A stretch of 64,000 bases of DNA from Candidatus Moraniibacteriota bacterium (GCA_026396275.1 JAPLXC010000002.1:74922-138921); one strand, 5' to 3'. Positions 11,054 to 60,818 are shown, counted from the stretch's first letter. Notes: generated by a model from the sequence alone, not told the origin. Numbers and translations: made by a program.

Positions 11054-11100
11054 GTGTTAAAATGAGTCAAAACGTAACTTAGTGCGGTTAAACCTTTAAT

Positions 11101-11175: not shown

Positions 11176-11177
11176 AT

Positions 11178-11425: not shown

Positions 11426-11531
11426 CAGGCATTTGGCAGGCGGGGATTCTCATATCCCGCTCAAAGATTCTCTGAAAAATTGGCTTATTTCAACCCCGAA
11501 TATTTTCCTAGAATAAGCCAAATTTAGACCA

Positions 11532-11556
11532 AAATCCCTTATTTAAGGGATTTTTT
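11532..11556. terminator. symmetric hairpin with T-runs (bidirectional terminator-like)
   Basis: aaatccctta-ttt-aagggattt, followed by TTTTTT. Confidence 0.55.
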
Positions 11557-11713
11557 GGTTTTCCAAGCTTGACTTTCTGCCTGCAATCTGCTAGCATGGT
11601 AGGTTGGCATAATATGCCTTTTTTGTTTGGGCTATTTGCCAGCCCCCTAAACCACAGAAGGTTCAGGGCAGGGCAGTTTCTGAAAAACGTGCCTTAACAA
11701 TTAATGATAGCTT

Positions 11714-12277: not shown

Positions 12278-12287
12278 TCCATCCAAA

Positions 12288-12348
12288 TGTCATTCCGGGC
12301 TTGACCCGGAATCTAGAAAATTGGATTCCCGCCTTCGCGGGAATGACA
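12288..12348. mobile_element. MITE-like element (TGTCATYC...GRATGACA family), copy 2, intergenic
   Basis: tgtcattccgggcttgacccggaatc...cccgccttcgcgggaatgaca. It has the terminal inverted repeat and two internal hairpins. Confidence 0.55.
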
Positions 12349-12437
12349 TACTAACAAGCAAAAACACCCAAGGATTTTCCGAGGGTGTTTTTGTATTACC
12401 TTGTTAATTTTGGCTTGTTGGTATAAATTTGTTATAA

Positions 12438-12508
12438 GGTCCGGTGGCCGAGAAGTTAGGCAGAGGTCTGCAAAACCTCTTACAGCAGTGCAAATCTGCT
12501 CCGGACCT
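12438..12508 (+). tRNA. tRNA-Cys(GCA)
   Basis: Acceptor ggtccgg/ccggacc with U73 discriminator (the Cys identity element). Anticodon arm gaggt-ctGCAaa-acctc. T-arm agcag-tgcaaat-ctgct. Confidence 0.75.
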
Positions 12509-12533
12509 CAAAATTATAGTATGGTTTGTCCAA

Positions 12534-12621
12534 GCCCGGGTGATGGAATCGGCAGACATGAGGGACTTAAAATCCCTTGGATGAATAATCCGTGCGAGTT
12601 CGAGTCTCGCCCCGGGCACCA
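12534..12621 (+). tRNA. tRNA-Leu(TAA), CCA encoded
   Basis: Acceptor gcccggg/cccgggc. Anticodon arm aggga-ctTAAaa-tccct. Long variable arm. T-arm gcgag-ttcgagt-ctcgc. ACCA at the end. Confidence 0.8.
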
Positions 12622-19346: not shown

Positions 19347-19580
19347 GCGGCGGGAGAGGGATTCGAACCCCCGGTACCCTTTCGGATACACCTGATTTCG
19401 AGTTCCCGCACAAAGCGGAAGGAGTGAGATTCGAACTCACGGTCCCGTTTCCGAGACACCGCATTTCGAGTGCGGCCCATTCAACCACTCTGGCATCCTT
19501 CCACTATATGCGGGACGCAGCAGGCCTACGTGTCCCGCACCAATTTTTGGTGCGGGATTCAACCACTCTGGCATCCCGCC
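19347..19580 (-). pseudogene. interrupted tRNA-Ser(CGA)-like outer gene. The 5' piece (19557-19580; acceptor ggcggga plus D-arm) and the 3' piece (19347-19413; anticodon loop, variable arm, T-arm, acceptor tcccgcc) flank the intact tRNA-Ser(CGA).
   Basis: Acceptor strands ggcggga/tcccgcc are complementary. The D-arm is identical to that of the inner Ser gene. The CCCGCACC/GGTGCGGG inverted repeat flanks the insert. Confidence 0.5.
19416..19502 (-). tRNA. tRNA-Ser(CGA)
   Basis: The reverse complement folds as: acceptor ggaagga/tccttcc, D-arm ccagagtggttgaatgg, anticodon arm ccgca-ctCGAaa-tgcgg, long variable arm gtctcggaaacgggacc, T-arm gtgag-ttcgaat-ctcac. Confidence 0.8.
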
Positions 19581-19599: not shown

Positions 19600-19800
19600 G
19601 GCTCACAAAGGGATTGCTCCCTTACGGCTTTTTCTCGACCCCGTAAGAAAGCGAAGGGTATAAGAGTTGAACCTGTGAGGGGATTGCTCCCCAACCGCAT
19701 TTCGAGTGCGGCGCATTAGACCACTCTGCCAACCCCCCGCTTCTCTACGGGGCGAGGCCGCTTCCTTTATTGAATCTCGGCCACTCTTCCAATTATATAA
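19600..19800 (-). repeat. array of further degenerate tRNA-Ser-like fragments (minus strand)
   Basis: A second ccgca-ctCGAaa-tgcgg anticodon arm at 19698-19715; duplicated variable-arm hairpins ggggagcaatcccc / gggagcaatccc; an unusual T-loop ttcaact; and a class-II-like 5' fragment ggaagag-tg-gccgagattc. Confidence 0.4.
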
Positions 19801-21997: not shown

Positions 21998-22609
21998 ATG
22001 AATTTTAAAAAATATTATTTAATAGCGACTGCCAGTGTTATTCTCGCCTTAATTTTTCCTTTTGTTTCTTTAGCCCAATGCAAGGCGGAAGGAAATGTAA
22101 TAGAGTTTTGCAATCCTCTCCGGTTCAACACGGTGCAGGAAGTTTTAGCGAGCTTAATGGCTTCCCTTCAAGGAGTAATTGTAGTCATCTCTATTATTTT
22201 CATAATTATCGGGGCGGTGTTTTACATTACTTCGGGCGGGAGCGAAGATCGGATAAAAACCGCCAAGAAAGCCATTCTTGCCTCAATGATCGGACTAGCT
22301 ATTGGAATTGCGGCACCGACATTCCTAAAGGAAATATCAAGCATCTTAGGATGGACAAATCAGCCACCGGAGTTACAACAGGCGAAAAGCATTGCCGAAA
22401 TAGCTCTTAGTGTCCTGAATTTTCTTCTGGGAATTGTCGGGGCTCTGGCGCTCATTATGATGATAATTGGGGGAATTATGTATCTCACCGCAGCGGGAAA
22501 CGAGGACCGAATTGATGCAGGCAAAAAGATTTTCAAGTTTTCCCTAATTGGAATTGCCGTGGCGCTGGCATCGCTGGTTATTATCAGACAAATTGCCTTG
22601 TTTTTTTAA
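21998..22609 (+). CDS. T4SS-type pilin (TrbC/VirB2-like) with two tandem pilin domains
   Basis: Signal peptide, then two copies of the hydrophobic-YxTxGG(S/N)EDRI(x)AKK-hydrophobic module (FYITSGGSEDRIKTAKKAILASMIGLAIGI and MYLTAAGNEDRIDAGKKIFKFSLIGIAVAL). Confidence 0.6.
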   Translation: MNFKKYYLIATASVILALIFPFVSLAQCKAEGNVIEFCNPLRFNTVQEVLASLMASLQGVIVVISIIFIIIGAVFYITSGGSEDRIKTAKKAILASMIGLAIGIAAPTFLKEISSILGWTNQPPELQQAKSIAEIALSVLNFLLGIVGALALIMMIIGGIMYLTAAGNEDRIDAGKKIFKFSLIGIAVALASLVIIRQIALFF

Positions 22610-22641
22610 TCAATATTTTTTAACGCAAAGAATTTAGACCA

Positions 22642-23097
22642 ATGCTATTCAATGTTCCCCAATTTATTGATGTGGAAGACAAAGTGGCCGGTCCCTTCAC
22701 GGCCAAGCAGCTTCTTTGGATGTTTGGAATGGGCGCGGTACTGCTAGTGCTCTGGAACATACTTGAAAAACCGGCTTTTTTTGTTTCCGCTGTTCCGATA
22801 GTTGCTCTTTTTATGGCTTTGGCTTTTTATCGCCCCTATAACCAGCCACTAATAAGATTTATTCTTTTTTCTTTACTGTTCCTTTTCCGCCCCAAGGTGT
22901 ATGTGTGGAAAAGAATTCCTCATAAAATAGCATCTCAGGCAGGAAAGAAAAAAACGCCTGCTACGATGGAAAAAGAAAAAAAGAAAATGCTCAATCCGGA
23001 AAATATAGAAGCGTTAGCGCGAGTGCTGGACAGCGAGGGCAGGGAACGGAATGAAAAAATTATGGAGATAATAAAGAGAAATCAAAAATCAAAATGA
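22642..23097 (+). CDS. VirB3/PrgI-like small membrane protein of the T4SS-like system
   Basis: 151 aa with two adjacent TM helices after an N-terminal ...FIDVEDKVAGPFTAKQLLWM... segment. Sits immediately upstream of the VirB4 ORFs. Confidence 0.4.
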   Translation: MLFNVPQFIDVEDKVAGPFTAKQLLWMFGMGAVLLVLWNILEKPAFFVSAVPIVALFMALAFYRPYNQPLIRFILFSLLFLFRPKVYVWKRIPHKIASQAGKKKTPATMEKEKKKMLNPENIEALARVLDSEGRERNEKIMEIIKRNQKSK

Positions 23098-23185
23098 AAA
23101 AATCAAGATTCTAAATCAAAATTAAAAAATTTTTAAGTTCTAAGGTCTCTTAATTTCAATTTTTTATCTTTTTGCATTTTGATAT

Positions 23186-23890
23186 TTGATTTTTAATATT
23201 GCTATGGAGTTACTACATTCGAAAAAATTAACCGCCGGGAGTGGAGCCAGCACGCAAAAGTACGTGGACGTTGAAGAGATTAAAAACGGAGTTATCGTTC
23301 TTAAAAACGGGTCTTTGAGGGCCATTCTTTTGGTCTCTTCCATAAATTTCGAGCTTAAGTCCACGGAAGAGCAGGACGCAATCGTCGGCCAATATCAAAA
23401 CTTCCTTAATTCTCTGGATTTCCCTGTTCAGATTATTGTCAGTTCCCGACGGCTCAATATTGGTCCCTATCTGGATTTTTTAGGGGATAAAGAAAGTCAG
23501 CAGACGAATGAATTATTGCGGCTCCAGATTTCCGAATACATAAACTTCATTAAAAATCTCACCGAGGTCTCCAATATAATGTCCAAGTTTTTCTATATCG
23601 TGATCCCCTTTTCTCCAGTGGAAACAAAAGAAGGAGGGCCTTTCCGGAAACTCACTTCAATGTTCAACCCTCGACAGTCAATACTGCGCAAGCGAGAACT
23701 TTTTGAGACATACGAAAACCAGCTGTGGCAAAGAGTGGATCACGTGGTTGCCGGGCTGAGCGGAACAGGAGTAAAAGTTACTCCTCTGGGTACTGAAGAG
23801 GTAATTGAGCTGCTGTATAATTCCTATAATCCAACAATCTATACCAACTCAATCGTCCGGGAGATTGAAAATATTGAACTAGGAAAATAA
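23186..23890 (+). CDS. VirB4/TrbE-like N-terminal domain, encoded as a separate ORF
   Basis: 234 aa ending 4 nt before the ATPase ORF. Together the two ORFs reach the normal VirB4 length (~840 aa). Own RBS (AGGAAA) precedes the downstream ATG. Confidence 0.5.
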   Translation: MIFNIAMELLHSKKLTAGSGASTQKYVDVEEIKNGVIVLKNGSLRAILLVSSINFELKSTEEQDAIVGQYQNFLNSLDFPVQIIVSSRRLNIGPYLDFLGDKESQQTNELLRLQISEYINFIKNLTEVSNIMSKFFYIVIPFSPVETKEGGPFRKLTSMFNPRQSILRKRELFETYENQLWQRVDHVVAGLSGTGVKVTPLGTEEVIELLYNSYNPTIYTNSIVREIENIELGK

Positions 23891-23894
23891 AATT

Positions 23895-25706
23895 ATGTTT
23901 GATCTGGGAAAAAATAAAAAAGAAAAAGACACACTGCTGGAAAGCGAAGAACTTTATCAAGCAGGAGAGGCAACTATTAAGGACTTGATTGCTCCGGCGG
24001 CGGTGAAGATTAATGCCAACTATATCCAAATTGGCGAGACCTACACCCGAACACTTTTTGTCATTACCTACCCCCGTTATCTTCACACTAGCTGGTTTTC
24101 GCCGATTATCAACATTGATTTTCCGCTGGACATCGCCATGTTTATTCATCCGGTTGATACCAACGAAATCCTGAAAACTTTGCGCAAATCCACCACCCGG
24201 GTGCAGTCAGAAATTCACTTGGAGGAAGAAGCCGGAAAAATTCGCGACCCGATTTTGGAAACCGCCCTTCGGGATATTGAGGACTTGCGCGACAAGCTTC
24301 AGCAAGGGACTGAAAAATTCTTTCGATTCGGTCTTTACATGACCGTTTACGGGAAGAGTTATGATGAAGTAAGCAAGATCTGCCAGCAAATTGAGGCCAT
24401 TTTAGAAGCGCAACTGGTTTACGTGAAGCCGGCGGTACTTAAAACCGAACAGGCCTTTTCTTCCACGCTGCCGCTGGCTAACGACGAGCTGGATGTCGGG
24501 AATAATCTCAATACCTCCCCTCTTTCCACCACTTTTCCTTTCGTTTCTTCCGACCTTTCCTCCAATGAAGGAATTCTTTACGGCATCAACCGGCACAACA
24601 ATAGTTTAATTCTTTTTGACCGGTTCAATATGGAGAATGCTAATATGGTGATTTTCGCCAAATCCGGAGCCGGGAAAAGTTATTCCGTGAAACTGGAGGT
24701 GCTGCGCTCGATGATGCTGGGGACAAACGTGATGATTATTGACCCGGAAAACGAATATAAATATCTGTGCGAAACGGTCGGCGGAACCTTTGTTAAAATT
24801 TCTTTGGACTCCCATTTTCACCTCAATCCCTTTGATCTTCCTAAAATCAAAGAAGACGAAGATCCGGAAGGAGTTATCCGCAATACCATCGCTAATATTA
24901 TCGGTCTTCTTCATCTCATGCTCGGATCAGTCACGCCGGAAGAGGATTCAATTTTGGATCGAGCCATTCGAGAGACCTACGCGGTGCGCGACATTACTCC
25001 CCAGAGCAACTTCCAGTCGTTTACTTCCAATTCTTTCCCGACGATGTCCGATCTTTATGAAGTGCTGCGCAATATGGAGGGAGCGGAATCGCTGGCGATG
25101 CGTCTTGAAAAATACACCGAAGGAATTTTTTCCGGCTTTCTCAATAATCCCACCAACGTGAATATTGACAACCAGCTGGTAGTGTTCAACATTCGCGATT
25201 TGGAAGAGGAACTTCGCCCAGTGGCGATGTACGTTGTTTTACAATTCATCTGGAATGAGATGCGTTCGGAGCTAAAGAAGCGTTTAGTAGTAGTGGATGA
25301 GGCCTGGGTAATGATGCAAAATGAAGACGCCGCTTCTTTTATGTTTGGCATTGCCAAAAGGTGCCGCAAGTACTACACGGGACTTACCACTATTACTCAA
25401 GACATTACTGACTTTTTGGCTTCCCGCTACGGAAAGCCGATTGTCACCAACTCCTCGATTCAGTTGCTTCTCCGCCAGTCGCCAGCGGCCATTGAAACAG
25501 TAGTGGAGACGTTTTACCTTACCGATCAGGAGAAATTTCTGCTTTTGGAAAGCAACGTCGGGGAAGGAATATTTTTTGCCGGCACCAAGCATGTGGCGAT
25601 TAAAATCATCGCTTCCTATAGTGAGGATCAGATTATTACTTCCGATCCACGCCAGCTGCTGGAAATAGAGCAAGCCAAAAAAGAATTTGGCGAGGAAAAA
25701 ATGTAG
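23895..25706 (+). CDS. virB4: VirB4/TrbE/CagE-family T4SS ATPase (C-terminal ATPase portion)
   Basis: Walker A IFAKSGAGKSYSVK, Walker B LVVVDEAWVMMQNEDAA, and the TTITQDITDF motif. Confidence 0.85.
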   Translation: MFDLGKNKKEKDTLLESEELYQAGEATIKDLIAPAAVKINANYIQIGETYTRTLFVITYPRYLHTSWFSPIINIDFPLDIAMFIHPVDTNEILKTLRKSTTRVQSEIHLEEEAGKIRDPILETALRDIEDLRDKLQQGTEKFFRFGLYMTVYGKSYDEVSKICQQIEAILEAQLVYVKPAVLKTEQAFSSTLPLANDELDVGNNLNTSPLSTTFPFVSSDLSSNEGILYGINRHNNSLILFDRFNMENANMVIFAKSGAGKSYSVKLEVLRSMMLGTNVMIIDPENEYKYLCETVGGTFVKISLDSHFHLNPFDLPKIKEDEDPEGVIRNTIANIIGLLHLMLGSVTPEEDSILDRAIRETYAVRDITPQSNFQSFTSNSFPTMSDLYEVLRNMEGAESLAMRLEKYTEGIFSGFLNNPTNVNIDNQLVVFNIRDLEEELRPVAMYVVLQFIWNEMRSELKKRLVVVDEAWVMMQNEDAASFMFGIAKRCRKYYTGLTTITQDITDFLASRYGKPIVTNSSIQLLLRQSPAAIETVVETFYLTDQEKFLLLESNVGEGIFFAGTKHVAIKIIASYSEDQIITSDPRQLLEIEQAKKEFGEEKM

Positions 25707-25722
25707 ATATTGAATTATCTTT

Positions 25723-26253
25723 ATGTCCGAGCATGATCACAGGAGACGTTTGGCAGAAGCCAGAAAAAAATATCAGGATACGAAAAAAATTGCGGCTGAA
25801 GCCAAGACCTTGGTAAAATCCGCCACTCCCTGGGGAGTGTTTTCTTTACTTTCCCAATTTAATTTATTTGCTGACTGGGTCTACGCAGCAGCGCTCGCAG
25901 CAGCTATTTTTAAAGATTTTTTTTTAGACCTTATATTTGGTTTTATTCCTGCTGTTGGAGCAGTAATAACTTGGCTCGTTTCAATTTTTATTTTTTTCAT
26001 GATGATTCTTTCCAATACGCTAGAAAAAGACCGCACTGTCTTTCAGCGAACACTTATAAGATACATAACTCGTTTTCTAATCCTGATCCTAGTTACAATT
26101 TGTGAGTCTATCCCAGCGATAGAAGTATTACCACTGGAGACAATTGGAGTCATTGCAATTTATTTGTTTACTTTAGCAGCTAGGAAAAATGCAGAAGAAG
26201 TTAAAAAGAAAGCAAGGACCGCTCAGGCGTCAATGGAGGAAGAATATGTATAA
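25723..26253 (+). CDS. small integral membrane protein, T4SS-associated by position
   Basis: 176 aa with about 4 TM segments. Translationally coupled to virB4. Confidence 0.3.
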   Translation: MSEHDHRRRLAEARKKYQDTKKIAAEAKTLVKSATPWGVFSLLSQFNLFADWVYAAALAAAIFKDFFLDLIFGFIPAVGAVITWLVSIFIFFMMILSNTLEKDRTVFQRTLIRYITRFLILILVTICESIPAIEVLPLETIGVIAIYLFTLAARKNAEEVKKKARTAQASMEEEYV

Positions 26254-26336
26254 TAAATCAAAAATCAAATATCAAAATGCAAAATTTTATCCTTTTTAAA
26301 TTTTGATTTTTACATTTTGATTTTAGCGCAGCGCTT

Positions 26337-27863
26337 ATGCCTTCTAAAATACTTTCCGCTGCTACTATTGGCCTTGATAGTGAAATTGTAGAAGTGGAAG
26401 TGGATGTTCTGGGCCAGGGACTCCATAATTTTACCATCGTTGGTCTCCCCGACACGGCTATCAAAGAATCACGCGACCGGGTTAGTTCGGCCCTCAAGAA
26501 CAGCGGCTTCAAGCCGGCTCATCGCTGCGGCCGGATTACCGTGAATCTGGCTCCGGCTGATCTTCCCAAGCTAAGTCCGATTTATGATCTTCCCATTGCC
26601 CTTGGACTCATTTTAGCTACCAATCAGGTCCATTTTGACTTCAAAGGAAAAATGTTTGTGGGAGAGCTGGCTCTAGACGGAACAGTGCGCCCGATTCACG
26701 GAACTCTTCCCATCGCGCTTCTTGCCAAAGAAAAAGGAATAAAAGAACTTTATGTTCCACGAGAAAACGCGCCTGAAGCCAGCGTGGTCAGGGAAGTCAG
26801 AATTATTCCGGCGGATAATTTTTATTCTCTGGTCAGTCATCTTATCGGAGAGCAAATTATTGATTTTTTTCCGGAAGTGAATTTTGAGGAATTATTTCAA
26901 AAAGAAGAATATCCGCTGGATATGTCCCACATCCACGGTCAGGAACATGCTAAACGAGCTCTTGAGATTGCCGCCGCCGGCGCCCACAACGTGATTCTCA
27001 ACGGTCCTCCCGGATCAGGAAAAACGCTCCTGGCCAGGACAATGCCTTCCATTCTTCCCCGCCTCAATTTTTCCGAATCGCTGGAAATCACCAAAATATT
27101 TTCCGTGGCGGGGAAGTTGTCCAAGAACAGTGGTTTGATTACCGAGCGCCCTTACCGCTCTCCTCATCACAGCGCGAGTGCTGTGTCATTGGTGGGCGGA
27201 GGAACTTATCCCAAGCCCGGTGAAATAAGCTTAGCCCACCGGGGAGTGTTATTTTTGGACGAATTCGCCGAGTTCCCCCGAAACGTGATGGAGAATCTCC
27301 GCCAGCCGCTGGAAGACGGAGTGATATCAGTATCTCGCGCCAAGGGATCGCTTGAATTTCCGGCTCGCTTCACTTTGATCGCGGCCATGAACCCCTGCCC
27401 GTGCGGCAACGCGACTGATCCAGAGCGCCTCTGCTCCTGCAGCCCGGCGCAGATCATCAAGTACCAGCGAAAAATTTCCGGTCCGATCTTAGACCGTATT
27501 GACCTTCATGTAGAAGTACCGCGGCTCAAGTTTGAAAAATTGCGTGAGGATGGCCGCGGAGAAACCAGTGTTCAAATCAGGGAACGGGTAGAAAAAGCCA
27601 GAGAAGTTCAAAAAAAGCGTTTTAAAAATCTGGATATTATTACTAATAGCGAAATGAGTTCCAATCAGATAAAAAACTTCTGTCTTCTGGACAATCAGTG
27701 TATTGAACTCCTTCGCAGTGCTGTCACCACGCTGCACTTGAGCGCCCGGGCATATCATCGTATTATTAAGATCGCTAGAACCATCGCGGATCTCGCCGGA
27801 GTGGAAAAAATCCAGCCGGCCTACATTGCCGAAGCGGTACAGTATCGGTTTAAGACGGAGTAA
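26337..27863 (+). CDS. comM: YifB/ComM-family Mg-chelatase-like AAA+ ATPase (competence protein ComM)
   Basis: Lon-like N-domain, Walker A ILNGPPGSGKTLLAR, LFLDEFAEF, the C4 zinc motif CPCGN...CSC, and a C-terminal Mg-chelatase domain. Confidence 0.85.
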   Translation: MPSKILSAATIGLDSEIVEVEVDVLGQGLHNFTIVGLPDTAIKESRDRVSSALKNSGFKPAHRCGRITVNLAPADLPKLSPIYDLPIALGLILATNQVHFDFKGKMFVGELALDGTVRPIHGTLPIALLAKEKGIKELYVPRENAPEASVVREVRIIPADNFYSLVSHLIGEQIIDFFPEVNFEELFQKEEYPLDMSHIHGQEHAKRALEIAAAGAHNVILNGPPGSGKTLLARTMPSILPRLNFSESLEITKIFSVAGKLSKNSGLITERPYRSPHHSASAVSLVGGGTYPKPGEISLAHRGVLFLDEFAEFPRNVMENLRQPLEDGVISVSRAKGSLEFPARFTLIAAMNPCPCGNATDPERLCSCSPAQIIKYQRKISGPILDRIDLHVEVPRLKFEKLREDGRGETSVQIRERVEKAREVQKKRFKNLDIITNSEMSSNQIKNFCLLDNQCIELLRSAVTTLHLSARAYHRIIKIARTIADLAGVEKIQPAYIAEAVQYRFKTE

Positions 27864-27889: not shown

Positions 27890-28402
27890 ATGAAAAGCAT
27901 AATCCCACAGGAAGTCATTGAAAATAAAATACTTCTCATAAGAGGTAAGAAAGTTATTCTGGACAAGGATTTAGCCGCTTTTTATCAGGTTGAAACTAAA
28001 GTTCTTAACCGGGCTGTTAAAAGAAATATTGACCGTTTCCCGGAAGATTTTATGTTCCGCTTAAATAAAAACGAGTTTGACAATTTGAGGTTCCATTTTG
28101 GCACCTCAAGTTACGGAGGAAGGCGCTATATTCCTTTTGTCTTTACCGAACAAGGCGTGGCTATGCTTTCCAGCGTTTTAAAAAGCAAAAGGGCTATACA
28201 GGCCAACATACAAATTATCCGGACTTTTACCCGGCTCAGGGAAATAATAATCAGTAACCGCGAACTTCGTATTAAAATTGAAGAAATGGAAAGAAAAAAT
28301 GAAAGCAAATTCAAGGTTATTTTTGATATTATTAAAAAACTTATAGCCACCCGGGAAAAAGAGATAAATCCAAATAAACGGATCGGCTTTAAAGCTAAAT
28401 AA
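27890..28402 (+). CDS. ORF6N-domain protein (KilA-N/anti-repressor-like DNA-binding)
   Basis: LIRGKKVILDKDLAAFYQVETKVLNRAVKRNIDRFPEDFMFRL, followed by a coiled-coil C-terminal domain. Confidence 0.7.
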   Translation: MKSIIPQEVIENKILLIRGKKVILDKDLAAFYQVETKVLNRAVKRNIDRFPEDFMFRLNKNEFDNLRFHFGTSSYGGRRYIPFVFTEQGVAMLSSVLKSKRAIQANIQIIRTFTRLREIIISNRELRIKIEEMERKNESKFKVIFDIIKKLIATREKEINPNKRIGFKAK

Positions 28403-53395: not shown

Positions 53396-54601
53396 TTGGA
53401 AGGATCAAATTCTATTAGTAAACAATTGTTGGTATCACGCTTTCCGTTTCTGGGACGCTTGCGGCTGAAAAATATCCACACAAAAGTTTACAAATATCAG
53501 CGGGATCTGGCCGACTTTATCAAAAAACGCAGGACCGTCAAATTGCTTCATCTGCTCCGCAATTATTCGGCGCTGGTGGTAGTAATTTCCAGCGCCATAC
53601 TTGTCGCGGCGACCAATGTGGCAGCTAGCAAAGGTTCAGGCGGTTTTTTGTTTGGCTCCGGGAGCGGAGACGAAGAGCAACTTATAGCTGTCAGCAAAAA
53701 AATTGACGCCCAGTCAAGCCGCAAGAGTAATCTGGCCCTTGTCCCCTTGGCTAAATCCGGCATAGCGGTTGATCCGGATGCGAAAGACGATTTTGAATCC
53801 GAGGCCATTAATCCCATCCAGGGCCAGGTAATGATGGTTAGCGTCAATACCTCACTTAGAGATCCCGAGGAAGAGGGGGGAGTGGAAATTTACACAGTGC
53901 GCACGGGAGACACGGTGAGCGCCATCGCGGCCCGCAACAGCATTACTGTCAACACGATTCTTTGGGCCAATGATATTGATAACGTTGACTCCATTATGCC
54001 GGGAGATAAAATTTTCATTCTTCCGGTCGCCGGCGTCGGTCATACCGTGAAAAGTGGAGACACTCTGGATTCTATTGCGAAGAAATATAAAGCGGATAAA
54101 GAAAAGATTATTACTTTCAACGGCCTTCCGGCCGATGGAACAATCCGGGAAGGCGACGAGATTATTATTCCTGGCGGGCAAAAGGAAGTTCCCCAAAGTC
54201 CTGGAACAGCCAGTGGCCTTCTTCGGCAGTACGCCACTCCTTTGGGCGGCACTCCGCTTATTTCCGGCTGGAGAAAGCTGGATGGAAGAGCGGGAGCGGG
54301 GCACAGATTTCCTTATGGATATTGTACCTGGTATGTTTCCCAGCGGCGCTTTATTCCCTGGGGCGGAAATGCCGGGGCTTGGCTTTATAACGCCAAAGCC
54401 GGCGGTTATCAAACCAGCAAGGCCCCCCGAGTGGGAGCAATTATCGTCACTGCCGAATCCTGGTGGGGACATGTCGGGATAGTGGAAAAAGTAAGCGGCG
54501 GATCAGTCACTATTTCGGAGATGAATTACAATCGATGGGGAAAAGTGAACAAACGGACACTGGCGACTTCCAGTCGAGTGATAAAAGGATATATTTATTA
54601 A
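53396..54601 (+). CDS. secreted peptidoglycan hydrolase: two LysM domains plus a C-terminal CHAP amidase/peptidase
   Basis: LysM motifs (YTVRTGDTVSAIAARNSITVNTILWAN; HTVKSGDTLDSIAKKY). CHAP catalytic Cys (GYCTWYV) and His (WGHVGIV). Confidence 0.75.
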   Translation: MEGSNSISKQLLVSRFPFLGRLRLKNIHTKVYKYQRDLADFIKKRRTVKLLHLLRNYSALVVVISSAILVAATNVAASKGSGGFLFGSGSGDEEQLIAVSKKIDAQSSRKSNLALVPLAKSGIAVDPDAKDDFESEAINPIQGQVMMVSVNTSLRDPEEEGGVEIYTVRTGDTVSAIAARNSITVNTILWANDIDNVDSIMPGDKIFILPVAGVGHTVKSGDTLDSIAKKYKADKEKIITFNGLPADGTIREGDEIIIPGGQKEVPQSPGTASGLLRQYATPLGGTPLISGWRKLDGRAGAGHRFPYGYCTWYVSQRRFIPWGGNAGAWLYNAKAGGYQTSKAPRVGAIIVTAESWWGHVGIVEKVSGGSVTISEMNYNRWGKVNKRTLATSSRVIKGYIY

Positions 54602-54878
54602 CTGACAACTTTACAACTGACAACTGATAACTGATGACGAAAAACTAGCAACAAGACGGCTCGCTGAAAATCGGGCTGTTTTTATTGCATTTTTTATTCT
54701 TTCTGTTATATTAAGGGCAGAAAATTGTAGTACCTTTTAGAGCGTTAGGATTGACAAAACAAGAAATTTGAACTTTAATAGAGCATCAAGATCTTTAACA
54801 ATCTATAAGTTAGCTATTTTCGAAAGAGAAACACTTAAAAAAACAGCCAATATTTTGGCGGAAAACAAGGAGGGAAAG

Positions 54879-55322
54879 ATGAGAAAAATAGTAGGAATAT
54901 TTATCGCTATTATGCTGTTACTAACAGCAAACTGTTTACAGGCAGGATCAGGAGATAATCTGGAGAAAAAAATCGAAAGAAAAATTATAAAGCAGATAAT
55001 TTCATTTGTGGACGAAAGACCCATTGAAATTGTATGGGCAGACAAACTTAAAATCATAAGAAAAGAATCGCAACCTTACTGGACTGGCAGAATAATTCAT
55101 TTCCGTGCTGGCTACCTTCCTGCGGAGATAAAGTTAAAAAAAGGAAAGAAAATCAGAAAAGCTGATATTATGTTTATGGCTGGATACGGGGAAGAGGATG
55201 GGAAAATAGTTTCAGAAGCGTGTGAGATTTTAAACATCGCTTATCAAGACAGTCCAAATTACGAGTCAGAAAAGAAAAAATTCATGGGACTGGTAAAAGC
55301 TACCAAGCCATTCGAACGCTAA
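54879..55322 (+). CDS. hypothetical secreted protein
   Basis: Signal peptide MRKIVGIFIAIMLLLTANCLQA. RBS AAGGAGGG. The start was moved from the track's 54768 to ATG 54879. Confidence 0.35.
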   Translation: MRKIVGIFIAIMLLLTANCLQAGSGDNLEKKIERKIIKQIISFVDERPIEIVWADKLKIIRKESQPYWTGRIIHFRAGYLPAEIKLKKGKKIRKADIMFMAGYGEEDGKIVSEACEILNIAYQDSPNYESEKKKFMGLVKATKPFER

Positions 55323-55490: not shown

Positions 55491-57476
55491 GTGCAGAAGA
55501 AAATAAAAAATAAAAGTGGTATTTTTTACAAAAGGCAACTTTTTAAAATGTTAGCTTTTTTGGCGTTTGCCTTTTTTTTGCTAAATCTTCGTCTTAGTTT
55601 AGAAATGGATTTTTCCGGCAAAAACGAGGGATACTTATATACAGTATCTTTTACAAAAACTTTAGGCCAGGGACTTTCTGGTCCCCTTGTAGTAGATCCA
55701 AATTCTGAACTATGGAAAGGCGATAACTGGAAAAAGTGGGAAAATGTTAACAAGGATCTACAGAAGAAATTAAAATCATACGAAGCACCCTGTGGACCTA
55801 CCGACATCGGCTGTTGGTTTAAACAGTTGCTTTACTCGGTATTTCGCGTTGTAGCTTTGTTTTTGGGAATTGCTGGTGTCTTGTTTGGTTGGGTAATAAA
55901 GCCGGATAACGTTTATCTTGTTCTTAGAGATAATGAAGCGATTTATGCTGGCTGGAAAGCAGTTCGTGACTTTTTAAATTTAACTTTCATTTTAGTTTTG
56001 CTTTTCAGTGCTTTTTGTACCATATTTCAAGTTGAAAAATATAATCTCAAAAAAATACTTCTCACTCTAGTAATAATGGCACTACTGGTTAATTTTAGTT
56101 TTCCTATCGCTCGCTTTATCATTGATGTTTCTAATGTCACTTTTTACTTTATCATTAACAATGCATTCAGTGGTGGCAACGGTGAAGGAATTTTCACTTC
56201 TTTTGCTAATTACTCCGAGCTTGTTGGCATTCTTACAGCTAAACAGGCAGGGCAAGCCGACTTTTGGTATCTCATTATGATAATTATCTTTACCTTTATT
56301 TTAATGATCACACTTTTTGTTATTGCTATTCTTTTTATAATTCGATTAGCAGTTCTCGCCATCCTCATTATTCTTTCTCCCGTTGGCTTTGTAGCTGCGA
56401 TCTTCCCCTCAACCAAACACTATGCTGATGAATGGTGGGAATCACTTTTTAAATACTCTTTTTTCGCCCCTATAATGGGCTTTGCAATGTATCTTTCCCT
56501 GAGAGTTTTAGAGGCAATGAAACAAAAAGGTATAGATATTAGTTTTCTTAAAGAGGCACAAAAAAATGTTAGTGGAGATATTGATCCCAATATGTTTGGC
56601 AAAATGGCATTCTTTGCTATCCCCGTTATAATGCTCTGGGTAGGCATAATTGCCTCTACAAAATTGGCCGGCGGAGCTGGAAACTGGGTGGCTGGGCAAG
56701 CTAAAAAATTCGCCGGGTGGGCGAGAAGACAACCCTGGCGAGGAACAAAGGCGCTGGTAGGTGCAACAGGAATTCCGGGAGGGGCCAAACAAGCATGGAG
56801 TCAATTCAGGAGAACGGGAAAATTATTTGGCAAACAAACGCCTATATACCGCGGTTCTGAAAGCAGAGCCGAGTCGGAAGCCAAATGGGCGACCCGTTTT
56901 GGTGTTAGGGGGGCGAGGGAACAAGATATTAAAAGAAGAGCGGAGGAAATGAAAAAGAATAATGTAAGTGTTACGGAGCGAAAAGATTTGGCGGCAAGGG
57001 GAAATGCAGCAGCTGTTTATAGCTTGGCTGATGATAAATTGATAGATCAAGAAACTTACGATAAGTTTTTGGCAGCGAATAAGGATAAAGATATTCATGA
57101 AACCCTTGACTTTAAGTTGAAGCAAACTAGGACAGACCTTATTGCAATTAGAAAATCTGGGGACCAAGAGGAGATACAGAAAGTTCAGAATGCCAATCCA
57201 AACTGGAATATCAATCAGGTTATGGATCACATTGTCCGCCAGGAGATGGGCAAAATGAACGCTGAAAAATGGTCCGATCAAGATTGGGATAAAATACTTG
57301 CTCCTCCTCCCCAAGGTGCTACTCCTACACAGGTTCAGGACTGGCAAAGAAAAATTGCGGCAACCCAATGGACATTTTCTCCTCAAAATATGACTGCATC
57401 AGCACAAAGCGAAATTAGAAAACGGATAAATCCAAATAAAAAAGCCGCGCTTAATGCGCAAAACATACCAGTCTAA
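55491..57476 (+). CDS. VirB6/TrbL-like polytopic membrane protein with a long soluble C-terminal extension (T4SS-like system)
   Basis: 661 aa, about 8 TM helices in the first 400 aa, then a hydrophilic C-terminal domain. Sits in the same locus as the four pilin paralogs. Confidence 0.4.
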   Translation: MQKKIKNKSGIFYKRQLFKMLAFLAFAFFLLNLRLSLEMDFSGKNEGYLYTVSFTKTLGQGLSGPLVVDPNSELWKGDNWKKWENVNKDLQKKLKSYEAPCGPTDIGCWFKQLLYSVFRVVALFLGIAGVLFGWVIKPDNVYLVLRDNEAIYAGWKAVRDFLNLTFILVLLFSAFCTIFQVEKYNLKKILLTLVIMALLVNFSFPIARFIIDVSNVTFYFIINNAFSGGNGEGIFTSFANYSELVGILTAKQAGQADFWYLIMIIIFTFILMITLFVIAILFIIRLAVLAILIILSPVGFVAAIFPSTKHYADEWWESLFKYSFFAPIMGFAMYLSLRVLEAMKQKGIDISFLKEAQKNVSGDIDPNMFGKMAFFAIPVIMLWVGIIASTKLAGGAGNWVAGQAKKFAGWARRQPWRGTKALVGATGIPGGAKQAWSQFRRTGKLFGKQTPIYRGSESRAESEAKWATRFGVRGAREQDIKRRAEEMKKNNVSVTERKDLAARGNAAAVYSLADDKLIDQETYDKFLAANKDKDIHETLDFKLKQTRTDLIAIRKSGDQEEIQKVQNANPNWNINQVMDHIVRQEMGKMNAEKWSDQDWDKILAPPPQGATPTQVQDWQRKIAATQWTFSPQNMTASAQSEIRKRINPNKKAALNAQNIPV

Positions 57477-57487
57477 ATTCAAATTAC

Positions 57488-58513
57488 ATGAAGATACCTT
57501 TTATTAAACTTAATAGGGAAATACAAATGGAGTTTTGTACAATTCCAAGTGTTGTTTCTTCAACAAAAAATCCTGACGATGAGACAAGAGAAAATATAAT
57601 AAAGAGACATGAGAAATTTCTAAAACTACCTGAAGAAATAAAAGACAAACTTGTTTTCCAAGAAACCGGTAAAAGAATTCAAGAAATTGGACAAGCATCT
57701 AGTTTGCAATTGTTGCAACTGGCTGACATCGCCCGGGCGGTGAGGAATTATTATTTCGGTGAGCTGAAACTGGAAGACATGCCGGCGGTTTTAGCGAGGG
57801 AAATTGGGATTGATTTAAATAAAGCTCGGGAAATTGCCAATCAAGTTGTTCAGAAAATAATCAGGGATAAGTCATATATTAAAACCGCTGAGACGATTTC
57901 TCTTCCTCTCTCCCAAGCGCTCCAGAAATATCCCGCCTTGGGTGAGCAGTTGATTACGGTAAATCCCATTCGGCTCAAAATCCTTCCCACTCCCGTCCGC
58001 CCTTCGGCAAAAAACTGGATTACCGATTACCACGAAAAACTGGGCGTAGGAAAGCACGAGGTAATGGAGCGGGGAAATTATCTTTACCATAGCGAAAACA
58101 CCAAGCGCCTGACGCCGGGAGAAAGGCAGAAACTGGCAGTGATCTTGAAGTCGCTGGATGAAAATGAGCCGATTGCGGTGGACGCGGAGAAGCAGGAAAT
58201 TGTGTTCCCTCACCCCGAGACCCTCTCCCAAAGGGAGAGGGGGCAAGTTAACAAAGCTAATTCAGCTAATAAAGTTGGCTATCGTTTCTCCTCGCCCCAG
58301 AGGTTCGCGGTTGAGAAACAAGAACCAGCGCCGCCTCCCCAACGGCCTACGTCTCCTCCTGCGCCGCCAGAGGTACCACCAGCTTTTCACAAGCCGCCGC
58401 GGCATGAGCACCAGCCTTATCATATTTATCCTTTGGGATATCCAGAACCGCCCAGACCGCCCGAGAAGACAGAGCCGAAAATTGATGGAAACACAGTAGA
58501 TCTAAGAAATTAA
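57488..58513 (+). CDS. hypothetical protein with a Pro-rich C-terminus (T4SS-associated by position)
   Basis: 341 aa. C-terminal PAPPPQRPTSPPAPPEVPPAFHKPP.... Contains the GC-rich hairpin ccctctccc-aaa-gggagaggg in frame. Confidence 0.3.
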   Translation: MKIPFIKLNREIQMEFCTIPSVVSSTKNPDDETRENIIKRHEKFLKLPEEIKDKLVFQETGKRIQEIGQASSLQLLQLADIARAVRNYYFGELKLEDMPAVLAREIGIDLNKAREIANQVVQKIIRDKSYIKTAETISLPLSQALQKYPALGEQLITVNPIRLKILPTPVRPSAKNWITDYHEKLGVGKHEVMERGNYLYHSENTKRLTPGERQKLAVILKSLDENEPIAVDAEKQEIVFPHPETLSQRERGQVNKANSANKVGYRFSSPQRFAVEKQEPAPPPQRPTSPPAPPEVPPAFHKPPRHEHQPYHIYPLGYPEPPRPPEKTEPKIDGNTVDLRN

Positions 58514-58566: not shown

Positions 58567-58950
58567 ATGCCAAATCAAATCCAAAACCCAAAGGCAAAAA
58601 AGAGTTATGACTTGGAAGAGAGAACGGCAAAATTTGGAGAAAACGTGATTGGATTTGTCCGCACCCTGCCAAAAGATCCGGTAAATGTTCCCTTGATAAA
58701 CCAGGCAGTTAGATCAGCTACAAGCATTGGAGCTAATTATATGGAAGCAGATGGCGCGGAATCAGGGAAAGATTTTAGACATAAAATCGCGATTTGTAAG
58801 AAAGAAGCCAAAGAATCAATGCACTGGCTAAGAATGATTGCCAAAGCCAATGCCGGAAAAAAAGACGAGTGCAGAAAACTTTGGAAGGAAGCTCATGAAT
58901 TAGCCCTCATCTTTTCAGCTATTTTACGGACAGCTGGTAAGAAAAAGTGA
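58567..58950 (+). CDS. four-helix-bundle protein (23S rRNA IVS-encoded protein family)
   Basis: SIGANYMEADGAESGKDFRHKIAICKKEAKESMHWLRMIA, the signature of the TIGR02436-like family. Confidence 0.65.
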   Translation: MPNQIQNPKAKKSYDLEERTAKFGENVIGFVRTLPKDPVNVPLINQAVRSATSIGANYMEADGAESGKDFRHKIAICKKEAKESMHWLRMIAKANAGKKDECRKLWKEAHELALIFSAILRTAGKKK

Positions 58951-59015
58951 TTTTAATATTTGAGCATTTGAAATTGATTTGGAACAATTTGAACTTTGGT
59001 ATTTGGATTTACAAG

Positions 59016-59342
59016 ATGCTTAATAATCTAGTTAAAATTAGTGTTTGGAAACGTGATTTCTGCTTCATAATTCCATTTGTAGCTGTTGCTAATGCTGGTG
59101 TAATCACCGACGCTCCCACGGTGGCGGAAGTCCTTTACAAAGCCCTCCAGTTTCTTTTGTCGGTTTTCGGATTTCTTGCTATAATAGGACTGGTAATTTC
59201 CGGAGTTCTTTACCTTACCGCGGCGGGCGATCAAAGAAGAATTGAAAAAGCTAAGAAAGCGTTTTATTATTCAATTGTAGGAATTGTAATAGCGCTGGGA
59301 GGATGGGTAACTATTAAAACGGTTATTTCATTAACGGGTTAA
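59016..59342 (+). CDS. T4SS-type pilin (TrbC/VirB2-like) paralog 1
   Basis: Hydrophobic LYLTAAGDQRRIEKAKKAFYYSIVGIVIAL core. The start is uncertain (track start 58947). Confidence 0.55.
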   Translation: MLNNLVKISVWKRDFCFIIPFVAVANAGVITDAPTVAEVLYKALQFLLSVFGFLAIIGLVISGVLYLTAAGDQRRIEKAKKAFYYSIVGIVIALGGWVTIKTVISLTG

Positions 59343-59422
59343 TGAGTTAAGTTTTTTCAGCCCGTTGGCTCGTGAACTCGTTAACTGAAAAATAAATAAT
59401 AAAGATAGAAAGGCGGTGAGTT

Positions 59423-59782
59423 ATGAAAACAAAAATCAAAAGAATCGGCTATAGCATAGCGTCGGCTGCGGTTTTAGCGGCTCCGCTGGTGGTGCTGGCT
59501 CAATTTGACCGTCCAGGCGGAACCAACCTTCCCGAGGGAAGAATGTTTGATATTGTCACCAACGCGATGATGTGGCTCTTAGCAATCGTCGGAATCATCG
59601 GCGTTATCGGTTTTGCCATTGCTGGAATTTTGTACCTCACGGCGGCGGGGGACGAGACCCGAATTGAAAAAGCCAAGTCGGCAATGCTGATGTCAATCAT
59701 TGGAGTAGTAGTAGCGCTGGTAGGACTGGTGATTATGCGGGCGGTACAGACCTGGCTGGGAGGAAGCGCGAGCCGGTTTTAA
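59423..59782 (+). CDS. T4SS-type pilin (TrbC/VirB2-like) paralog 2
   Basis: Signal peptide ...VVLAQFD. Core ILYLTAAGDETRIEKAKSAMLMSIIGVVVAL. Confidence 0.6.
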   Translation: MKTKIKRIGYSIASAAVLAAPLVVLAQFDRPGGTNLPEGRMFDIVTNAMMWLLAIVGIIGVIGFAIAGILYLTAAGDETRIEKAKSAMLMSIIGVVVALVGLVIMRAVQTWLGGSASRF

Positions 59783-59960
59783 GCTGCTGCGCAAGAAGCA
59801 AGTGCCAATTTACGAATATTTTTTAAATTTTGGAAATTAACGGATTAAAGGATTAACGAATTATCTCAATTCGTTAATTCGTTGACTTGTTAATAAATAA
59901 TAAAGTTTCAACCTCTTTCAATTCCGCTTCGGCGGGGAAGAGGCCAAATCTTTTGGAAAT

Positions 59961-60320
59961 ATGAGAAAAATAAAAAAACAAATCTTAATTTCCTTTTCAG
60001 CCCTGCTGTCTCTTGCTCCTCTGGCAGCTATCGCCCAGTGGGATCCAGCCAATTACAGCACTACCAATCTCCCGGCCGGAAGGGTCTATGATATTATCTT
60101 CAATATCCTGTTTTGGCTCTTGGCGATTTTTGGAGCCGTCGGCATTATCGGTTTTGTGATTTCCGGAATACTTTATTTAACAGCTGCGGGAAATGAAGAG
60201 CAGATCACTAAAGCCAAGTCGGCAATGAAATGGTCGCTGGTGGGAGTGGTAGTGGGGCTGGCGGGATTGGTTATTCTTCGGGCGGCAACTACCGCTCTTG
60301 GAGGATTTTTCTATTTTTAG
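59961..60320 (+). CDS. T4SS-type pilin (TrbC/VirB2-like) paralog 3
   Basis: Signal peptide ...LAAIAQWD. Core ILYLTAAGNEEQITKAKSAMKWSLVGVVVGL. Confidence 0.6.
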   Translation: MRKIKKQILISFSALLSLAPLAAIAQWDPANYSTTNLPAGRVYDIIFNILFWLLAIFGAVGIIGFVISGILYLTAAGNEEQITKAKSAMKWSLVGVVVGLAGLVILRAATTALGGFFYF

Positions 60321-60335
60321 AATTATTTTGAAGAA

Positions 60336-60818
60336 ATGAAAAAAACCAAAATACTTATTTTACTAGCTTTAGGAGTTATTCTGCTTTTAAGTGCGAGTGT
60401 TTCTAACGGTCAACAGTGTCCTGAGGGCTACACGTGGGACCCGGAAGGGCAGCAGTGTATACTGACTGGTAGCCCCGGACCAGGTCCAGGACCTTCGCCA
60501 ACTGGAACTTGTCCTAATGGTTTTGAAAAAAAAGCGGGCGTGTGTTTCCCAACCAACACCGGGCTTTCCGATACACCGGTAGCAGATATTATCGAGAATT
60601 TCCTGATGTGGCTCTTGGGAATCTTTGGATTTATCGCCATCATTGCTTTCATAATTTCCGGTATCCAATATCTTACTTCAGCTGGTGAAGAGAAAGCGAT
60701 TGAAACCGCCAAGCGCAATATGAAATGGTCAATCGTCGGAGTGATTATAGCGCTGGCGGGATTTGTTATTATTTTGGCAGTTGATGCGGCCTTAAAAGCA
60801 TCATCGACATATTTTTAG
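60336..60818 (+). CDS. T4SS-type pilin paralog 4 with an extra Cys-rich N-terminal module
   Basis: Signal peptide; CPEGYTWDPEGQQC...GPGPGP...CPNGFEKKAGVC; then core IQYLTSAGEEKAIETAKRNMKWSIVGVIIAL. Confidence 0.6.
   Translation: MKKTKILILLALGVILLLSASVSNGQQCPEGYTWDPEGQQCILTGSPGPGPGPSPTGTCPNGFEKKAGVCFPTNTGLSDTPVADIIENFLMWLLGIFGFIAIIAFIISGIQYLTSAGEEKAIETAKRNMKWSIVGVIIALAGFVIILAVDAALKASSTYF

Follow-up and report, generated by a model that had tools for sequence, protein, structure and literature searches.

Between positions 21998 and 27863 of the window (the whole 64-kb stretch of a Candidatus Moranbacteria genome that was analysed) lie six ORFs, whose coordinates and plus-strand orientation agree with those given in an earlier note on this DNA (Table 1). 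Five of them encode a VirB2-like pilin that is secreted and has two modules, a PrgI/VirB3 membrane anchor, a VirB4 made as two polypeptides and a small membrane protein; the sixth ORF is comM. A second cluster in the window, at 53-61 kb and 27 kb from the first, contains genes for a CHAP hydrolase, a VirB6-like protein, the protein o341 and four pilins.

Table 1. Features of the two clusters, with positions counted from the first nucleotide of the window.
Feature	Position	Strand	Length	Basis or detail
Two-module (fused tandem) VirB2/TrbC-like T4SS pilin	21998..22609	+	203 aa	PF18895, internal repeat, module HMM, structure model
PrgI/VirB3-like small membrane protein	22642..23097	+	151 aa	PF12666 PrgI
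TrsD-like protein, VirB4 N-terminal sub-domain as a separate soluble polypeptide	23204..23890 (23186-23890 from TTG)	+	228 aa (234 aa from TTG)	VirB4 models, fold, hhalign
Split junction	23881..23897	+		AGGA 23881-23884, TAA 23888-23890, aatt, ATG 23895-23897
VirB4-type ATPase without first sub-domain	23895..25706	+	603 aa	NCBIfam CD1110-family VirB4, PDB 4AG5
mem176, small membrane protein	25723..26253	+	176 aa	Positional companion of VirB4
ComM/YifB Mg-chelatase-like AAA+ ATPase	26337..27863	+	508 aa	TIGR00368, three Pfam domains
Tyrosine recombinase	51979-52977			Adjoins second cluster
LysM-CHAP peptidoglycan hydrolase (VirB1-like role)	53396..54601	+		LysM E 3e-24, CHAP E 5e-18
Single-TM protein between CHAP and VirB6-like genes	54768..55322	+	184 aa	Assigned by position only
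VirB6/TrbL-like polytopic membrane protein	55491..57476	+	661 aa	PF04610, hydropathy, position
o341, conserved soluble protein, proline-rich C-terminus	57488..58513	+		Between VirB6 and PrgI in type-B relatives
Four single-module T4SS pilin genes	58947..60818	+		58947-59342, 59423-59782, 59961-60320, 60336-60818

The suggestion that the first gene fuses two TrbC/VirB2-like pilin modules was borne out. The protein matches the T4SS_pilin family PF18895 in two stretches (E 8e-16, 58.3 bits, cutoff 26.6), contains an internal repeat whose copies are 32% identical across 71 aa (E 7e-15) and yields two domains with an HMM of the module; the two-module form is kept in all 28 window-like (type-A) loci and the architecture also occurs in more than 120 cluster representatives. 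A signal peptide (about residues 5-30) precedes modules at about residues 37-118 and 125-203, each of which is predicted to form a helix-loop-helix hairpin, and the structure model (pLDDT 85.6) places helices at 46-77, 83-117, 132-163 and 169-202. Two papers on related T4SSs (PMC12102498 and PMC10633639) make no mention of a fused pilin of the VirB2 type. The second gene product is indeed VirB3/PrgI-like, as had been proposed, matching PF12666 above its cutoff (E 1.9e-8, 35.2 bits against 27) and displaying hydrophobic stretches at 19-65 and 70-88; its gene lies directly 5' of the TrsD-like gene in 77 of 80 related loci.

The 603-aa ATPase comprises the rest of a VirB4 N-terminal domain (PF03135 region, residues 45-193) and a P-loop C-terminal domain (CTD; residues about 219-582). 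It scores 380.6 bits (cutoff 325) against the CD1110-family VirB4 model NF045971 over model positions 176-734 of 752, also matches P-loop_TraG/AAA_10, and aligns with the VirB4 CTD of PDB 4AG5 (E 3e-53). The P-loop (AKSGAGKS) and Walker B (LVVVDE) motifs are intact, and as judged from these matches the protein is a VirB4 of the monoderm (FATA/CD1110-like) type. The product of the following gene, mem176, begins with a polar, basic N-terminal part, after which come two long blocks of hydrophobic residues; it matches no Pfam or NCBIfam family and has only 11 sequence homologs. A sequence match to mem176 is found directly after VirB4 in 20 of 22 type-A loci and in 23 of 38 loci of the alternative arrangement (type B), and a similarly built ORF occupies the position in 14 of the other 18 loci examined. 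mem176 is a fast-evolving companion that travels with VirB4; the T4SS literature (PMC12102498, PMC10633639) gives no function to a component of this type.

The second cluster is the other half of the same T4SS. In 44 loci o341 lies directly 5' of PrgI-TrsD-VirB4, most of these displaying the full Xer-CHAP-VirB6-o341 block, and because about 44 relatives have CHAP-VirB6-o341 contiguous with PrgI-TrsD-VirB4 we regard the window as containing one system in two pieces. The CHAP hydrolase gene, which is the first of the second half, heads the contiguous CHAP-VirB6-o341-PrgI-TrsD-VirB4 cluster of type-B loci. Assignment of the VirB6-like protein draws on six hydrophobic segments in a hydropathy scan, a position conserved in type-B clusters and a match to TrbL (PF04610) that is under the family cutoff (E 1.7e-4, 21.9 bits against 25.9). 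Profile searches returned no family match for o341 or for the 184-aa protein, which has one hydrophobic segment (38-62). In the pilin array all four genes match the module HMM (E 1e-24 to 2e-18), and PF18895 is matched with E 2e-10 and 5e-9. No VirB8-like component was identified.

The earlier note pointed to comM directly downstream and suggested that the set may be a DNA-uptake, pilus or adhesion apparatus. It could be argued that a T4SS-like machine takes up DNA as the Ced system of archaea does, working in functional coupling with ComM, the branch-migration helicase encoded downstream. The identity of ComM is secure (612 bits against TIGR00368, YifB/ComM, cutoff 362; ChlI, Mg_chelatase and C-terminal Pfam domains), its gene directly follows the cluster in 22 of 22 type-A loci, a search of the 83-nt spacer upstream of it found no terminator-like site, and the window has no relaxase. 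The adjacency itself stands, but it is specific to one lineage: comM adjoins none of the 38 type-B clusters, even though these are the more complete, so that its position follows a rearrangement in this region instead of the T4SS module, and constitutes weak evidence for DNA uptake. ComM/YifB is, moreover, a widespread housekeeping protein, and comM is probably a neighbouring housekeeping gene outside the module. To our knowledge T4SS-like import is established only for Ced (CedA/CedB). This archaeal machinery shares with the window system a VirB4-like ATPase and a VirB2-like pilus without a relaxase, and the ATPase resembles CedB weakly (E 1.8e-14); the match, however, is 53.3 bits against a cutoff of 700 (21 bits for CedD), far weaker than that to conjugative VirB4 families, and no CedA-type protein was found among the locus proteins scanned. 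In the class ABY1, comF, recG and radA are found near virB4 (PMC12102498), which favours uptake. In the only relative tested genetically, S. epibionticum, in contrast, competence depends on comEC, the deletion of which leaves viability unaffected, whereas the T4SS is essential (PMC12857230), a result that speaks against DNA uptake being the core function. We therefore consider an uptake machine quite unlikely.

A second possibility is that the cluster belongs to an integrative conjugative element (ICE) with its relaxase and coupling protein encoded beyond the ends of the window. In favour of this view, the closest characterized homologs, VirB4/TraE and TrsD, are conjugation proteins encoded by plasmids of Firmicutes, a tyrosine recombinase adjoins the second half, and homologs of the coupling protein (T4CP) are common elsewhere in Patescibacteria genomes (PMC12102498). 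The flanking genes, however, are IF2, tRNAs, KsgA, UvrD and NusA, this neighbourhood is repeated in 80 species-level genomes, and the GC content of both halves (0.422) does not deviate from that of the window (0.423); the locus sits in the conserved core chromosome and not in an ICE. The recombinase, with UvrD beside it, itself keeps this position in dozens of genomes, a pattern that fits a housekeeping Xer protein and not an ICE integrase. The statement that the window contains neither VirD4 nor a relaxase holds at the level of Pfam domains in every ORF of at least 120 aa across the 64 kb, five of these ORFs being without any Pfam match. It should be emphasized, however, that the missing VirD4, which had been taken to speak against conjugation, is uninformative, because coupling proteins are usually far from virB4 in Patescibacteria: of 5,713 T4CP homologs in 2,918 genomes only 148 are near virB4 (PMC12102498), and a T4CP is likely to be encoded elsewhere in the same genome. 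Relaxases were recorded in only 103 genomes of the same survey, rarely near virB4 (PMC12102498). A conjugative element is thus very unlikely.

The junction of the divided VirB4 was read in the sequence as proposed, a 4-nt spacer separating the TAA of the small ORF from the ATG of the ATPase, with AGGA 10 nt upstream of that ATG. Although a mechanical ORF call begins the small ORF at TTG 23186, ATG 23204 is most likely the start, because all homologs begin there. The small ORF aligns with the N-terminal part of three full-length VirB4 models (positions 99-233 of 894, 2-119 of 752 and 18-124 of 792), and the 603-aa ORF continues these models collinearly; the predicted fold agrees (pLDDT 87.3), the top 14 PDB fold matches all being TrwK/VirB4. 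A natural fusion of 797 aa (P0270) also exists, residues 225-793 of which are 54% identical to the window ATPase. The break is, however, not at the boundary between N-terminal domain and ATPase, as the two-ORF division had been described, but within the N-terminal domain and near position 120-175 of the 752-position model, because the PF03135 part of that domain and about 218 residues preceding the CTD remain in the 603-aa ORF. The 4-nt gap and the fused version would be compatible with a remnant locus in which VirB4 had been disrupted by a nonsense mutation, a frameshift or an assembly error, but such decay is effectively refuted by two ORFs kept separate in 70 of 70 related loci with spacers of -4 to about +250 nt and all relative frames, 62-78% identity of the small protein across species-level genomes, 6,801 homologs (the best 120 all of 225-249 aa) with nearly all of 2,421 representatives stand-alone, intact ATPase motifs, the same layout in functional-type Gram-positive plasmids, and the reported essentiality of the TrsD homolog in S. 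epibionticum (PMC12102498). The split is genuine, as the note had supposed, and ancient.

This split VirB4 is the published TrsD and VirB4 gene pair, a layout already described and hence not novel; a 2025 report ranks TrsD first in abundance among the T4SS components of Patescibacteria (PMC12102498). The small ORF scores 29.7 bits (E 5e-7) against the TrsD/TraD model NF041427, below the curated cutoff of 200, but hhalign pairs it at a probability of 99.1% with a plasmid TrsD-family protein that is itself the best match to NF041427 (69 bits), and its homology to the TrsD family is clear.

The window locus is thus a chromosomal copy of the pilus-bearing, relaxase-less T4SS of Patescibacteria (CPR), here in a Moranbacteria genome, and is mostly known. 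With high confidence we view it as one half, the energising part with pilin, of a system that is fixed in the chromosome, inherited vertically and a member of the Patescibacteria clade, which stems from the conjugation machinery of monoderms (MPF-FATA). We place it in this clade by its gene content and nearest homologs: every close homolog retrieved is from Patescibacteria/Moranbacteria, the best plasmid matches being at most 36% identical. Patescibacteria commonly carry TrsD, PrgI, VirB2-like pilins and VirB6, and rarely relaxases (PMC12102498). The closest known systems are the Patescibacteria-clade T4SS (Quinonero-Coronel et al. 2025, PMC12102498) and SEML1_0006-0019 of S. epibionticum ML1 (Wang et al. 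2023, PMC10633639). Similar to both, the window system has an MPF-FATA-type VirB4 after a TrsD homolog, PrgI/VirB3, VirB2-like pilins, some of them in an array, a probable VirB6 and a peptidoglycan hydrolase, and is chromosomal, with KsgA nearby and no relaxase close by. In contrast with both, it is from Moranbacteria, lies in two blocks 27 kb apart, and has a fused two-module pilin and a small conserved membrane protein after VirB4, while in its sub-lineage comM abuts the cluster.

The gene pair also resembles the TrsC-TrsD-TrsE/TraD-TraE layout of monoderm conjugative plasmids (the pGO1 subclass of MPF-FATA), which was checked on Bacillus cereus p30102_3 and Macrococcoides canis pMiCAN82a. 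There a TrsD-family protein of about 216 aa is encoded directly 5' of a VirB4 of about 617-634 aa, and a cell-wall hydrolase, shared with the window system, follows VirB4. Unlike the window system, these are plasmid-borne conjugation machineries and, according to the literature, lack VirB2-like pilins. The TrsD-VirB4 layout is viewed as inherited, because in the B. cereus plasmid the 216-aa TrsD-family ORF overlaps the 617-aa traE.

In the R388 structure the N-terminal domain of VirB4 binds VirB3. Within the R388 inner-membrane complex of TrwK (VirB4) and TrwM (VirB3; PDB 7O41, 8RTB, 8RTD) TrwK chains alone match the fold predicted for the small ORF, and the CTD of the window ATPase also matches TrwK; TrwK, however, is a single 823-aa chain from a diderm system with an outer-membrane core complex, and identity is about 12-14%. 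Because of this fold match the TrsD-like domain is proposed to contact VirB3. By analogy with R388, TrsD would dock on PrgI at the membrane and recruit the VirB4 hexamer; the ATPase would then power pilin extraction and the assembly of a pilus-like fibre through a VirB6 channel, and the LysM-CHAP hydrolase would open the cell wall. A more speculative scheme, which we consider unlikely, is that the two-module pilin, as a covalent pseudo-dimer or as a polyprotein cut at a conserved ILGW linker, builds or primes the T4SS pilus of a monoderm CPR bacterium, that the fast-evolving membrane protein always trailing VirB4 serves it as a lineage-specific assembly factor, and that in the window-type sub-lineage ComM is co-transcribed and the machine feeds imported host DNA into recombination.

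Returning to the vertically inherited Patescibacteria T4SS, the non-conjugative role suggested in the earlier note agrees with the published view of these systems (PMC12102498, PMC10633639), and S. epibionticum cannot grow as an epibiont without its T4SS and the pilins (PMC10633639, PMC12857230). By analogy with this literature, the machine may serve not conjugation but epibiotic interaction with a host cell, through contact, the export of effectors or the uptake of host molecules.

All six ORFs that the earlier note placed at 21998-27863 are present, on the forward strand and with those coordinates, and the junction between the two parts of its proposed split VirB4 is as described: the small, TrsD-like ORF ends in TAA (23888-23890), followed by aatt and the ATG (23895) of the 603-aa ATPase, with AGGA 10 nt before that ATG. 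The ATPase, whose P-loop and Walker B motifs are unbroken, matched the CD1110-family VirB4 model of NCBIfam (380.6 bits, cutoff 325), the 508-aa ORF matched YifB (612 bits, cutoff 362), and the PrgI/VirB3-like protein suggested by the note matched the PrgI profile. The 176-aa membrane protein (mem176) matched no family in the profile search. A scan for promoters and terminators gave counts near the shuffled expectation and did not settle the operon boundaries.

Features of the two T4SS half-clusters and their surroundings (positions in the window)
Feature	Position	Strand	Remarks
Eight-gene tRNA cluster	10036-12621	+	
Tandem tRNA-Ser(CGA) pair	19415-19502, 19651-19738	-	Just upstream of locus
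Pilin ORF	21998-22609	+	PF18895 T4SS_pilin, two stretches, E 8e-16
PrgI ORF	22642-23097	+	PrgI match, E 2e-8
Small (TrsD-like) ORF	23204-23890	+	
603-aa ATPase ORF	23895-25706	+	P-loop_TraG, AAA_10; weak CagE_TrbE_VirB N-domain, residues 45-193
mem176	25723-26253	+	
508-aa ComM/YifB ORF		+	All three ChlI/Mg-chelatase domains present
ORF6N/KilA-N-type DNA-binding protein	27890-28402	+	Directly after comM
Low-GC (0.35) stretch	28-30 kb		After ORF6N gene
Giant 4,152-aa ORF	36742-49200	+	C-terminal bacterial SH3 domains; GC 0.48 vs 0.42
dCache protein, PrsW-like protease, beta-lactamase-family gene	49169-51588		With giant ORF between UvrD and Xer
Xer	51979-52977	-	Second cluster
LysM-CHAP	53396-54601		Second cluster
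184-aa protein			Second cluster, between LysM-CHAP and VirB6-like
VirB6-like	55491-57476		Second cluster
o341 (conserved soluble protein)	57488-58513		Second cluster
23S rRNA-intervening-sequence protein (PF05635, four-helix bundle)	58567-58950		Inside T4SS cluster
Four single-module pilin genes	58947-60818		Close second cluster
Inverted repeat copies	23079-23195, 26255-26323, 52986-53129		
Further arm-like matches	4309, 8579-8608, 31975		

Four independent lines identify the small ORF as the front of VirB4, a homology that emerged only with profiles and fold comparison. A phmmer search of PDB sequences returned nothing meaningful (best match NusG, E 0.034) and no Pfam model matched, the sole hint being TraC_F_IV (E 0.23); PF26593, precomputed for its homologs, lay outside the Pfam set searched. 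With three full-length VirB4 models, however, the small ORF aligned to N-terminal positions (99-233 of 894, 2-119 of 752 and 18-124 of 792), and the 603-aa ORF took up the same models at positions 281, 176 and 240 and covered all that follows. An exhaustive search covering 1.84 billion representatives recovered 2,421 relatives of the small ORF, nearly all short and stand-alone, and a single natural fusion, the 797-aa metagenomic protein P0270, in which residues 5-211 match the small ORF (41% identity) and residues 225-793 the window ATPase (54%). P0270 is either a secondary re-fusion or an artefact of gene calling or sequencing. The AlphaFold model of the small ORF (pLDDT 87.3) gave, as its top 14 matches among PDB folds, exclusively R388 TrwK/VirB4 chains (probability 0.87-1.0, best TMq 0.54), the next match lying at E 0.25. 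Alignment to 4AG5 starts the C-terminal domain of the ATPase at residue ~219, such that the 228 plus 218 residues ahead of it make up the usual size of a VirB4 N-terminal domain (NTD). The break thus falls within the NTD and not at the NTD/ATPase boundary.

The split is both real and old. A word-indexed search found 6,801 homologs of the small ORF, the best 120 of which are all 225-249 aa long, and their lengths and starts make ATG 23204 the likely start of a 228-aa protein. In a synteny sample of 80 related species-level genomes (Moranbacteria-like only, 62-72% identity, retrieved with a 28-sequence alignment), both genes were found in 70 loci. A frameshift, which the earlier note had also thought unlikely, or a pseudogene is ruled out because the two ORFs are separate in 70/70 of these loci; their relative frame takes every value, and the spacer between them can be as long as some 250 nt or give way to a 4-nt overlap. 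Many VirB4 ORFs in one class of loci (type B, described below; for example L055, L068, L053 and L077, 750-796 aa) are 60-190 aa longer than that of the window, and TrsD remains separate there; the extra length may be a C-terminal extension or a start codon called too far upstream.

The split VirB4 is not new. One match of the small ORF, under the curated cutoff, is to NF041427 (E 5e-7), the TrsD/TraD family of stand-alone proteins encoded by conjugative plasmids of Gram-positive bacteria. Plasmid p30102_3 of Bacillus cereus carries a 617-aa traE whose start lies within the end of a 216-aa 'hypothetical' ORF. This ORF belongs to the TrsD family and is homologous to that of the window (hhalign probability 99.1%, E 1.3e-18), and a Macrococcoides plasmid has the same layout. 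The TrsD plus VirB4 layout is an inheritance from Gram-positive plasmids. Quinonero-Coronel et al. (PMC12102498) reported 2,272 TrsD homologs, 1,664 of them adjoining virB4, together with PrgI/VirB3, VirB6 and pilins resembling VirB2, some of them in arrays of 2-11 genes, and concluded that the machinery descends from MPF-FATA and was co-opted to a non-conjugative role. The pair described here is their TrsD/VirB4 pair, and the whole system is an already known hallmark of Patescibacteria. Among the points that go beyond that survey are the inheritance of the layout from plasmids and the direct demonstration, by profile collinearity, fusion and fold, that TrsD and the short VirB4 rebuild a full VirB4.

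The two pilin modules recognized in the first ORF of the locus are borne out by an internal repeat (32% identity over 71 aa, E 7e-15) in addition to the two PF18895 stretches. Sequence and model give an N-terminal signal sequence and then four long helices, and more than 120 cluster representatives cover both modules. The gene just upstream of PrgI carries two modules in 28/28 loci of type A, the gene order found in the window; a single-module pilin gene usually precedes it in such loci and is missing from the window. Since the 2025 survey (PMC12102498) describes pilin arrays and no fused pilins, the fused double pilin, conserved in one Moranbacteria sub-lineage, is a small undescribed variant that extends the published picture. 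It may work intact or be cut at a conserved ILGW linker. A Foldseek search with the tandem pilin returned generic helical proteins only (best E 0.23), giving no structural support for a likeness to VirB2.

The related loci follow two gene orders. Type A runs IF2-DUF4446-methyltransferase-SBP-pilin(s)-PrgI-TrsD-VirB4-mem176-ComM-G5-KsgA and, further on, UvrD-Xer. Type B is a single contiguous cluster, UvrD-Xer-CHAP hydrolase-VirB6-o341-PrgI-TrsD-VirB4-mem176, and in 44 loci the gene next to PrgI on its upstream side is o341. It follows from this contiguity that the first locus of the window and its second cluster are two halves of one machine. The PrgI-TrsD-VirB4-mem176 block is relocated: it has moved some 10-27 kb away from its partners and has nonetheless been retained, which is again beyond the published survey and indicates that the two halves need not be co-transcribed. 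The earlier note was right that comM lies directly downstream; among type-A loci with sufficient sequence, 22/22 have comM after the cluster, against 0/38 of type B. Adjacency to comM goes with the rearrangement and lends little support to a functional link, and the relocated block warns against inferring function from it.

The homology search with mem176 found 11 homologs and no family, its sequence being poorly conserved. Nevertheless, in almost every locus, whether of type A or type B, the ORF after VirB4 is mem176 or a look-alike in which a polar N-terminus precedes two long hydrophobic blocks, and mem176 is probably an unnamed T4SS component. Past mem176 the type-B loci L046 (13467-17016) and L042 (14622-18634) encode an Rce1-like CAAX protease, a ~900-960-aa protein without a Pfam match and a ~430-aa protein with one T4SS_pilin module, possibly additional parts of the T4SS, or its substrates, that are specific to the lineage.

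Several other features accompany the two halves. The PF05635 gene shares 4 nt with the gene that opens the pilin array and occurs also in L054, L057, L059 and L074, its position in the cluster differing between genomes. UvrD directly adjoins Xer in relatives (for example L009, L023 and L028), and the UvrD-Xer interval of the window therefore looks like a ~15-kb insertion with a giant surface protein. In some type-A relatives (L010, L011, L014 and L019) the place of the ORF6N homologs varies, suggesting that this small gene is mobile or regulatory. A dispersed AT-rich inverted repeat, with arms of about AAATCAAAAATCAAATATCAAAA / TTTTGATTTTTACATTTTGATTT, has eight arm matches with at most three mismatches against 0.01 expected by chance; two intergenic copies flank TrsD-VirB4-mem176 and a third separates Xer from the CHAP gene. 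None of the 80 related loci contains the exact 15-mer arm, and the repeat is thus genome-specific. It could be a MITE/REP-like element, a terminator or a shared operator, although copies resembling the arm also occur within unrelated genes, and a role as rearrangement breakpoints, or as operators common to both halves, was set aside.

On synteny and composition, an integrative conjugative element (ICE) is very unlikely. The locus is surrounded by core genes and 14 tRNAs, both halves have the average GC of the window (0.42), and the tyrosine recombinase beside the second half recurs as a neighbour of UvrD in dozens of genomes, as would be expected of a housekeeping Xer and less so of the integrase of an ICE. 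The earlier note had also argued from the lack of VirD4 and relaxase. Indeed no ORF of at least 120 aa in the 64-kb window contains a T4CP or relaxase domain, but the lack of VirD4 carries no weight as an argument because only 148 of the 5,713 T4CP homologs in 2,918 Patescibacteria genomes lie near virB4 (PMC12102498). The same survey found relaxases in just 103 genomes.

By analogy with the R388 architecture, this bipartite but conserved gene set, its components identified and its VirB4 made of two polypeptides, may operate as follows: the TrsD-like domain would touch PrgI/VirB3 at the membrane and dock the VirB4 hexamer, which would drive pilin extraction and fibre assembly via the VirB6 channel, and the CHAP hydrolase would breach the cell wall. 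The literature points to a role in host interaction rather than conjugation. Tn-seq in S. epibionticum showed the T4SS and its pilins to be essential for growth as an epibiont (Wang et al. 2023, PMC10633639), and deletion of comEC ends competence with viability unaffected (2025 review, PMC12857230), which argues that T4SS essentiality does not act via ComEC-dependent DNA uptake. The sightings of the earlier note were correct and its interpretation reasonable. The locus itself is one more example, adding little beyond the four points stated, and the remaining interest is modest, lying in the double pilin, in the relocation of one half-cluster and in the small membrane protein conserved after VirB4. 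The class to which it belongs, however, is the sole T4SS known to be essential to its bearer, and is probably central to the exploitation of hosts by ultrasmall CPR bacteria.
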